A DNA stretch of 64,000 bases from Escherichia coli. GTDB lineage: Bacteria; Pseudomonadota; Gammaproteobacteria; Enterobacterales; Enterobacteriaceae. The notes under the pieces were generated by a model. That model was not told where the DNA came from and ran no database searches. It saw only the letters and a list, made by a program, of their open reading frames with translations. Shown in pieces: positions 31,111 through 63,404 of the stretch; positions within the stretch are counted from its first letter, which is position 1; the number at the start of each line of letters is the position of its first letter. The stretch lies in assembly GCF_048403405.1 (NCBI RefSeq), contig NZ_CP183129.1; one strand, written 5' to 3'. Made by a program: the position numbers and the translations under genes.

Positions 31111-31925
31111 ATGAAATCACTGTTTAAAGTAACGCTGCTGGGGCGACCACAATGGCCGTTGCCCTGCATGCACCGATCACTTTTGCTGCTGAAGCTGCAA
31201 AACCTGCTACAACTGCTGACAGCAAAGCAGCGTTCAAAAATGACGATCAGAAATCAGCTTATGCACTGGGTGCTTCGCTGGGTCGTTACATGGAAAACTC
31301 TCTTAAAGAACAAGAAAAACTGGGCATCAAACTGGATAAAGATCAGCTGATCGCTGGTGTTCAGGATGCATTTGCTGATAAGAGCAAACTCTCCGACCAA
31401 GAGATCGAACAGACACTGCAAGCATTCGAAGCTCGCGTGAAGTCTTCTGCTCAGGCGAAGATGGAAAAAGACGCGGCAGATAACGAAGCGAAAGGTAAAG
31501 AGTACCGCGAGAAATTTGCCAAAGAGAAAGGTGTGAAAACCTCTTCAACTGGTCTGGTTTATCAGGTAGTCGAAGCCGGTAAAGGCGAAGCACCGAAAGA
31601 CAGCGATACTGTTGTCGTGAACTACAAAGGTACGCTGATCGACGGTAAAGAGTTCGACAACTCTTACACCCGTGGTGAACCGCTCTCTTTCCGTCTGGAC
31701 GGTGTTATTCCGGGTTGGACAGAAGGTCTGAAGAACATCAAGAAAGGCGGTAAGATCAAACTGGTTATTCCACCAGAACTGGCTTACGGCAAAGCGGGTG
31801 TTCCGGGGATCCCACCGAATTCTACCCTGGTGTTTGACGTAGAGCTGCTGGATGTGAAACCAGCGCCGAAGGCTGATGCAAAGCCGGAAGCTGATGCGAA
31901 AGCCGCAGATTCTGCTAAAAAATAA
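31111..31925 (+). pseudogene. fkpA: periplasmic FKBP-type PPIase FkpA, reading frame broken in the signal-peptide region
   Basis: MKSLFKVTLL in frame 1 from 31111; rest of protein (MAVALHAPITFAAEAAK..., 257 aa) in another frame from 31152; junction is GGGG run 31140-31143. Confidence 0.7.
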
Positions 31926-45136: not shown

Positions 45137-45168
45137 TAAACGGCTCAGAAATGAGCCGTTTATTTTTC
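45137..45168 (+). terminator. S10 operon terminator
   Basis: Hairpin aacggctca-gaaa-tgagccgtt followed by a T-run. Confidence 0.65.
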
Positions 45169-61462: not shown

Positions 61463-62005
61463 ATGGCAAAATCAGCACTGTTCACGGTGCGTAATAATGA
61501 GTCCTGCCCAAAGTGCGGGGCTGAACTGGTTATTCGATCCGGGAAACACGGTCCGTTTCTTGGATGCTCACAGTATCCGGCGTGTGACTACGTCCGTCCT
61601 CTGAAATCTTCAGCGGATGGACATATCGTCAAAGTTCTGGAGGGGCAGGTTTGCCCTGCATGTGGCGCAAATCTGGTATTACGCCAGGGACGCTTTGGTA
61701 TGTTTATTGGTTGCAGTAACTACCCTGAATGCGAACATACCGAACTTATCGATAAACCGGACGAAACAGCAATTACATGCCCCCAATGCCGGACGGGCCA
61801 TCTGGTCCAGCGCCGCTCCCGTTATGGCAAAACGTTTCACTCCTGTGATCGCTACCCGGAGTGTCAATTTGCCATTAACTTCAAACCCATAGCTGGAGAA
61901 TGCCCTGAGTGTCATTATCCGCTACTCATCGAAAAGAAAACCGCGCAGGGTGTAAAACACTTTTGTGCCAGTAAACAATGTGGAAAGCCGGTTTCGGCGG
62001 AATAA
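61463..62005 (+). CDS. yrdD: topoisomerase-I-type zinc-ribbon protein
   Basis: 180 aa with four tandem C4 zinc-ribbon repeats. Confidence 0.88.
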
Positions 62006-62009
62006 TAAC

Positions 62010-62528
62010 GTGAATAATAACCTGCAAGGAGACGCTATCGCAGCTGCGATAGATGTTCTCAATGAAGAACGTGTCATCGCCTATCCAACGGAAGCCGTTT
62101 TCGGTGTTGGGTGTGATCCTGATAGCGAAATAGCAGTGATGAGACTGTTGGAGTTAAAACAGCGTCCGGTTGATAAGGGGCTGATTTTAATCGCAGCAAA
62201 TTACGAGCAGCTTAAACCCTATATTGATGACACCATGCTGACTGATGCGCAGCGTGAAACCATTTTTTCCCGCTGGCCAGGTCCTGTCACCTTTGTCTTT
62301 CCCGCGCCTGCGACAACACCGCGCTGGTTGACGGGCCGCTTTGATTCGCTTGCTGTACGAGTCACCGACCATCCGTTGGTGGTTGCTTTGTGCCAGGCTT
62401 ATGGTAAACCGCTGGTTTCTACCAGTGCCAACTTGAGTGGATTGCCACCTTGTCGAACAGTAGACGAAGTTCGCGCACAATTTGGCGCGGCGTTCCCGGT
62501 TGTGCCTGGTGAAACGGGGGGCGTTTAA
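62010..62528 (+). CDS. tsaC: threonylcarbamoyl-AMP synthase TsaC, apparently C-terminally truncated by a -1 frameshift
   Basis: GTG start, YrdC-family; frame ends at 62528 after a G6 run, the +1-shifted frame continues 17 codons to a TAA at 62579-62581 just before the aroE ATG. Confidence 0.8.
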
Positions 62529-62585
62529 ATCCTTCAGAAATCCGCGATGCCCTGACGGGTGAACTGTTTCGACAGGGGTAACATA

Positions 62586-63404
62586 ATGGAAACCTATGCT
62601 GTTTTTGGTAATCCGATAGCCCACAGCAAATCGCCATTCATTCATCAGCAATTTGCTCAGCAACTGAATATTGAACATCCCTATGGGCGCGTGTTGGCAC
62701 CCATCAATGATTTCATCAACACACTGAACGCTTTCTTTAGTGCTGGTGGTAAAGGTGCGAATGTGACGGTACCTTTTAAAGAAGAGGCTTTTGCCAGAGC
62801 GGATGAGCTTACTGAACGGGCAGCGTTGGCTGGTGCTGTTAATACCCTCAAGCGGTTAGAAGATGGACGCCTGCTGGGTGACAATACCGATGGTATAGGT
62901 TTGTTAAGCGATCTGGAACGTCTGTCTTTTATCCGTCCTGGTTTACGTATTCTGCTCATTGGCGCTGGTGGAGCATCTCGCGGCGTACTACTGCCACTCC
63001 TTTCCCTGGACTGTGCGGTGACAATCACTAATCGGACGGTATCTCGCGCAGAAGAGTTGACTAAATTGTTTGCGCACACTGGCAGTATTCAGGCGTTGGG
63101 TATGGACGAACTGGAAGGTCATGAGTTTGATCTCATTATTAATGCAACATCCAGTGGCATCAGTGGTGATATTCCGGCGATCCCGTCATCGCTCATTCAT
63201 CCTGGCATTTATTGCTATGACATGTTCTATCAGAAAGGAAAAACTCCTTTTCTGGCATGGTGTGAGCAGCGAGGCTCAAAGCGTAATGCTGATGGTTTAG
63301 GAATGCTGGTGGCACAGGCGGCTCATGCCTTCCTTCTTTGGCATGGCGTTCTGCCTGATGTAGAACCGGTCATCAAACTATTGCAACAGGAGTTGTCAGC
63401 GTGA
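62586..63404 (+). CDS. aroE: shikimate dehydrogenase
   Basis: 272 aa from [17 protein letters not shown]. Confidence 0.95.

Follow-up and report, generated by a model that had tools for sequence, protein, structure and literature searches.

A premature stop in Escherichia coli tsaC probably reflects one G missed from a seven-G tract

The gene tsaC is essential in Escherichia coli, as the preliminary description of this locus had stated and as its lethal deletion shows (PMC9654439). In the stretch of E. coli DNA analysed here (64 kb, in the following called the window), the reading frame of tsaC is interrupted by a premature stop codon directly after a run of six G residues. This raises the question whether the truncated C-terminus of the enzyme is dispensable or whether one base is missing from the assembled sequence; both options had been offered in the preliminary description.

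As written, tsaC starts with the GTG codon at 62010 and is 572 nt long; with one G restored it measures 573 nt, corresponding to 190 aa and a stop codon. At the tract the frame reads GGT GAA ACG GGG GGC GTT TAA, and the translated product consists of 171 native residues and one non-native Val, while 19 native residues (R172-G190) are missing. The preliminary description had placed the end of the frame at 62526-62528, just after GGGGGG at 62516-62521, and had proposed that one extra G carries it on to the TAA at 62579-62581, just ahead of aroE. Coordinates and translation agree with the first statement, and the translation of the repaired frame, which yields 190-aa TsaC ending at this native stop codon, as well as the annotated relatives, agree with the second. 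Its counts had to be corrected, as translation gives 19 lost native residues instead of 17 codons, and a truncated form of 172 aa instead of 173 aa. The out-of-frame remnant encodes, among others, P175, S176, I178, D180, and the invariant R188. The locus has the standard order yrdD-tsaC-aroE-yrdB-yrdA, adjoins rrnD, and retains the conserved E. coli synteny yrdD-tsaC-aroE in the window. The coordinates of all features are summarized in Table 1.

Table 1. Features of the tsaC locus and of the second contracted homopolymer in the window.
Feature	Position	Strand	Basis or remark
yrdD, upstream neighbour, intact	61463..62005	+	fixes synteny yrdD-tsaC-aroE
tsaC (yrdC/rimN), L-threonylcarbamoyladenylate synthase type 1	62010..62581	+	translation, NF007919, PGAP annotation of relatives
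G6 homopolymer, site of the putatively missing base	62516..62521	+	G7 in each of the six nearest relatives and, overall, in ~99% of complete E. coli genomes
Premature TAA resulting from the frame change	62526..62528	+	as-written product of 172 aa, ending ...GETGGV
Out-of-frame remnant, native R172-G190 and native TAA	62522..62581	+	translation; conservation; Pa-Sua5 alignment
aroE, shikimate dehydrogenase, intact	62586..63404	+	ATG 5 nt past the native tsaC stop, matching annotated relatives
rpsQ-rplN spacer, tract of T5 (nearest relatives: T6)	45163..45167	+	second one-base homopolymer contraction in the window, ascribed to the same error signature

The gene is the same as tsaC of E. coli K-12 (YrdC/RimN, b3282; PDB 1HRU and 2MX1), with which it shares the synteny yrdD-tsaC-aroE and the GTG start codon. 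The repaired 190-aa protein matched the K-12 structures 2MX1 and 1HRU at E = 6e-124 and E = 4e-123, respectively, and differed from the solved sequences at three residue positions (G7/R, I41/T, and A80/V). While the K-12 gene contains a G7 tract, the window as written contains G6, resulting in the 172-aa open reading frame (ORF) without R172-G190. The 90%-identity cluster holding TsaC also lists 180-aa ‘DNA topoisomerase family protein’ sequences (P0005, P0007, P0009, and P0012-P0014); these are YrdD, the product of the gene upstream of tsaC, and their presence in the cluster may be a clustering artefact caused by read-through or fused ORF calls.

The family models were covered over their full length only by the repaired frame, not by the ORF as written. 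For the TsaC equivalog model NF007919 of NCBIfam (cut-off 175) the score rose from 253.1 bits as written to 280 bits after repair, and coverage from positions 2-159 of 176 to 2-176 of 176 with one G added; for PF01300 (Sua5_yciO_yrdC) of Pfam (cut-off 25.1) the score rose from 152.5 to 157.3 bits, and coverage from 2-149 of 178 to 2-178 of 178. The ATP-binding tetrad K50xR52/S139xN141 of TsaC, which is named in PMC6004061, is kept in the ORF as written. Concerning the threonine-binding set, i.e., the equivalents of T33, S181, and R195 of Pa-Sua5, T27 is present, but S176 and R188 lie past the premature stop codon, where the shifted frame (62522-62581) still encodes both intact.

The retained tetrad and the score of 253 bits against the TsaC equivalog would be in keeping with a real deletion that leaves a 172-aa TsaC active enough for growth, with a C-terminal arm that is dispensable in vivo. 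Such a reading could also draw on PMC6004061, which, citing Teplova 2000 and Harris 2015, describes the last ~20 residues of Ec-TsaC as a flexible arm; the same paper reports that the conformation of this arm responds to ATP and proposes a role in ATP binding or gating, which speaks against its being dispensable. We examined how natural homologues end. Among 1.84 billion cluster representatives searched, the best 150 were analysed, and their ends were read from local HMMER coordinates, as global MAFFT alignment forces out-of-frame tails into register. Local matches extended to residue 183 or further in 130 of the 150 representatives, and in another two they stopped at 178-181 and were followed by 7-13 more residues. 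The remaining 18 stopped before residue 165 and resemble fragments or frameshifted calls; 17 of them had 22-174 unrelated trailing residues, and one ended at the end of the match. According to the local coordinates, none of the 150 representatives had a natural end at 165-175, i.e., near residue 171.

In 123 diverse full-length homologues, positions 172-190 had practically no gaps up to and including R188, and their conservation was on a par with that of the remaining protein, with a mean top-residue frequency of 0.48 compared to 0.51 elsewhere. Six positions were invariant in this set, R188, K50, R52, R117, S139, and N141, and the catalytic tetrad accounts for four of the five besides R188. 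Within the lost segment, high frequencies were also found for I178 (0.96), P175 (0.85), and D180 (0.84). In a profile alignment to 6F89, S176 of the E. coli protein aligned with the threonine-binding S181 of Pa-Sua5. Because this local alignment stops at residue 181 (181/186), we infer the equivalence of R188 to R195 of Pa-Sua5 from spacing and invariance. T33, S181, and R195 of Pa-Sua5 bind threonine, and all three were reported to be necessary for TC-AMP synthesis in yeast Sua5 (PMC10321239). Since the lost segment of this essential enzyme is conserved and functionally important, the 172-aa TsaC is predicted to be inactive, and a viable isolate is accordingly unlikely to have such a lesion in reality. 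The idea of a dispensable C-terminus is thus opposed by the coverage of the Pfam and NCBIfam models, by the invariant R188 and the near-invariant I178 as well as by P175, D180, and S176, by the alignment of S176 with S181, and by the lack of any natural short homologue among the 150 representatives; a sufficiently active 172-aa enzyme is hardly credible.

The preliminary description had suggested comparing tsaC with that of related strains. The six nearest genomes among the RefSeq complete E. coli genomes were TUM14771, GN02461, 4621, TUM1226, OX030728, and MS 69-1, and G7 was found in all six, which favours a homopolymer error. No gap-free match to the window was present among the RefSeq complete E. 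coli genomes. Each of the six spans 25,002 bases where the last part of the window has 25,000, and therefore all of them have two extra bases; for TUM14771, base-by-base comparison identified these as belonging to a T6 and a G7 tract. In these nearest relatives the tsaC tract is the sole G/C run of at least seven bases across the 64 kb. Over the whole 64 kb, the window differed from TUM14771 by four substitutions and three indel events, every one of the latter in a homopolymer. From TUM14771 to the window, these are GG to GGGG at 31140-31143, T6 to T5 at 45163-45167, and G7 to G6 at 62516-62521, and two of the three disrupt conserved genes (fkpA and tsaC). Three homopolymer indels beside four substitutions are unlike neutral divergence between near-identical genomes and like an uncorrected long-read consensus.

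In fkpA (31111-31925), the window reads CTGCTGGGGCGACC where TUM14771 and all 5,423 complete E. coli genomes read CTGCTGGCGACC. The insertion at 31140-31143 adds two bases at codon 11, within the signal peptide; translation from the ATG at 31111 ends after 79 aa, and the remainder of FkpA is readable only from an internal ATG at 31152 (257 aa). This insertion is private to the window; it may be a true mutation that inactivates fkpA, or an error of the assembly.

To place the tsaC allele among other E. coli, we used a query of 80 bases with the tract at its centre, which matched 5,423 complete genomes. The exact 6-G allele was found in 51 of them. The other 5,372 fell into the 95-99% identity band, and every one that was listed or inspected has one extra base (G7). 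Because 5,372 of 5,423 genomes differ from its 80-base stretch, and those listed or inspected are G7, the window departs by one base from the norm. The 51 carriers belong to unrelated backgrounds, including the K-12-sized laboratory strains C600, NH-21, 19213, and TUM24769 as well as STEC, APEC, ETEC, and clinical isolates, and the 678-bp haplotype of the window is common to only three of them. The carriers instead group as adjacent accessions by submission series or sequencing project, i.e., UID/UCPROB (13 genomes), CM1812xx-CM1813xx (five), CRE, CUVET16, CP1272xx-3xx, and CP183xxx/CP187284 (four each), and CP1465xx and CDC 2013C/2014C (three each).

In all three 6-G records that were inspected, PGAP marks tsaC as a ‘frameshifted’ pseudogene with the same 572-nt span (V8955_RS12510 in NZ_CP146564.1, ACYTVN_RS21830 in NZ_CM142696.1, and AC5OFA_RS19455 in NZ_CM181231.1), while the inspected 7-G records are annotated with an intact 573-nt gene. 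These pseudogenes have the identical lesion at the identical position as the window, but their SNP backgrounds differ from it. The preliminary description had held that a 6-G allele shared by related genomes with a conserved short C-terminus would speak against an error. The allele is indeed shared by 51 genomes; these, however, are unrelated by descent, and in the three inspected PGAP treats the gene as frameshifted.

The exact 172-aa TsaC also appeared among the protein calls of NCBI and Logan assemblies, on 201 contigs (221 index blocks). These blocks are mostly Logan contigs of 2-5 kb, and six exceed 1 Mb, which may point to noisy data; examples are GCA_037022705.1 (JBAMFL010000563.1) and Logan SRR30896155. 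Judged by these calls, the apparently false tsaC pseudogene is widespread in public assemblies beyond RefSeq.

The recurrent and independent origins of the 6-G allele on several backgrounds could be expected if the G tract were a contingency locus, i.e., a simple-sequence repeat whose phase variation turns tsaC on and off within natural populations. The carriers are sorted by sequencing project, though, and not by ecology or lineage, and an unrelated T tract is shortened in the same assemblies (see below). Moreover, tsaC is a housekeeping gene and essential (PMC9654439), which would make the ‘off’ state lethal. A contingency locus would be expected to vary in tract length within a gene that is dispensable, and to do so along lineages or ecology; this pattern was not found here, and we consider the chance of phase variation close to negligible.

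The second one-base contraction in the window offers an independent site. The T tract of the rpsQ-rplN spacer lies 17 kb from tsaC, between the S10 and spc operons and just past a terminator-like hairpin at ~45140-45159. Its T5 allele was found in 79 of 5,425 genomes. Among the 60 T5 genomes listed, 28 also have the 6-G allele of tsaC, compared to 0.56 expected (hypergeometric P = 1.6e-44). Some T5 carriers are without the tsaC lesion, e.g., WP3-S18-ESBL-08 and WP3-W18-ESBL-07, so that the shorter T tract may be genuine in certain lineages.

Pairwise comparisons were used as controls. The window and B1.H1.18 have both contractions in common, yet they differ by 101 substitutions over the 22-kb stretch that holds both sites, and a shared haplotype therefore does not account for the joint contractions. 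When B1.H1.18 was compared to 118UI, seven substitutions and four one-base homopolymer deletions were found, and every deletion was in B1.H1.18. The ‘C600’ K-12 assembly differed from MG1655 over 38.8 kb by two substitutions, by exactly the contractions T6 to T5 and G7 to G6, and additionally by a small, local deviation within the 23S rRNA. Both tracts are thus contracted on three unrelated backgrounds, in assemblies that otherwise hardly differ from high-quality relatives, and the contractions are therefore a property of the assemblies and not of the bacteria.

Further observations were made on the two control assemblies. In B1.H1.18, acrF (L001 33167-36270) is annotated as frameshifted, owing to a C5 to C4 contraction relative to 118UI (indel at L001 33786), and an A5 to A4 contraction relative to 118UI is located upstream of the 16S rRNA gene (L001 22624). 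The ‘C600’ assembly NZ_CM181231.1 (host Homo sapiens, blood, Taiwan) has, between aroE and yrdB/yrdA, an insertion of the IS3 family (L008 21014-22176) that is absent in MG1655, and it contains variant accessions for rplP, rpsE, and rplO.

The G7 to G6 change could still be a real mutation with an inactive 172-aa product, if the cells survived on a small fraction of full-length TsaC, made by -1 ribosomal slippage on G_GGG_GGC or by slippage of RNA polymerase, or contributed by G7 cells in a mixed culture. Formally, the 6-G tract provides an X_XXY_YYZ heptamer in the zero frame (G GGG GGC, 62516-62522), and a -1 shift at this site brings back the native frame; G runs are prone to slippage, and the allele has been observed repeatedly. 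The slippery heptamer, though, exists in the 6-G allele only, and the arrangement is unconserved, as in ~99% of genomes the tract is an in-frame G7. We found no downstream stimulatory RNA structure: the minimum free energy was -14.8 kcal/mol compared to a shuffle mean of -15.5 (z = 0.25), and 110 of 200 shuffles folded at least equally well. A search for Rfam elements at the tsaC tract gave none. Programmed recoding of tsaC was rejected on these two grounds, the missing downstream structure (z = 0.25) and the missing Rfam match. A run of six G is also short for transcriptional slippage, and neither the clustering by sequencing project nor the link to the intergenic T contraction is predicted by a biological rescue. 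Survival by slippage or by a mixed culture is therefore very unlikely.

Taken together, we consider the G6 tract of tsaC to be a homopolymer under-call, in which one G of G7 was missed in the assembly consensus, with a probability of about 0.9 on the comparative sequence evidence. The change comprises a single base, is confined to a homopolymer, and is absent in the closest relatives; it recurs across unrelated backgrounds, in clusters that follow the sequencing projects, and the assemblies affected show further homopolymer contractions. Of the two options in the preliminary description, the homopolymer error is the one supported, by the six G7 relatives, the project clustering, the scattered backgrounds, and the joint T5 contraction. 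A G7 tract read one base short in a long-read-type assembly would leave a G6 consensus, while the organism would keep the normal G7 allele and make 190-aa TsaC; the cause is presumably a base-calling or polishing error.

This agrees with published work: the consensus errors that remain in nanopore assemblies are chiefly homopolymer indels, with shifted reading frames as a result (PMC8011154), and in long-read assemblies it is false homopolymer deletions that predominate (PMC12007338). Like these nanopore and PacBio errors, the lesion in the window is a one-base deletion in the longest G/C run of the region that frameshifts a conserved gene, and such errors recur across assemblies and are mended by comparison with close relatives (PMC8011154, PMC12007338); the likeness of the window to them is drawn from comparative evidence only. 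As the truncation almost certainly corresponds to a missed G, a typical long-read error, tsaC is very probably intact, with normal 190-aa TsaC being made and no biological truncation.

Three points run counter to an under-call. The indel in fkpA (GG to GGGG, +2) is not a classic one-base contraction of a long homopolymer. The exact 172-aa protein occurs on 201 NCBI and Logan contigs, and if Illumina data underlie some of these assemblies, the allele would be genuine in some cases. Finally, G7 tracts are genuine mutational hot spots. Hence it could be argued that the tsaC tract is hypermutable and that some natural E. coli, this isolate included, are truly frameshifted and stay alive by -1 slippage or by an active 172-aa enzyme without R188; we regard this as highly improbable.

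For practical purposes, the result marks the window as derived from an assembly with uncorrected homopolymer errors, and caution is due with any further single-base frameshift of this genome. About 1% of the RefSeq ‘complete’ E. coli genomes would have the same false tsaC pseudogene, and the tsaC G7 tract together with the rpsQ-rplN T6 tract can provide a rapid check, at two sites, for long-read assemblies that were left unpolished. As biology, the case of tsaC matters little, because the gene is very probably intact. If the allele were true, it would challenge the essentiality of full-length TsaC or the need for its invariant C-terminal arginine.
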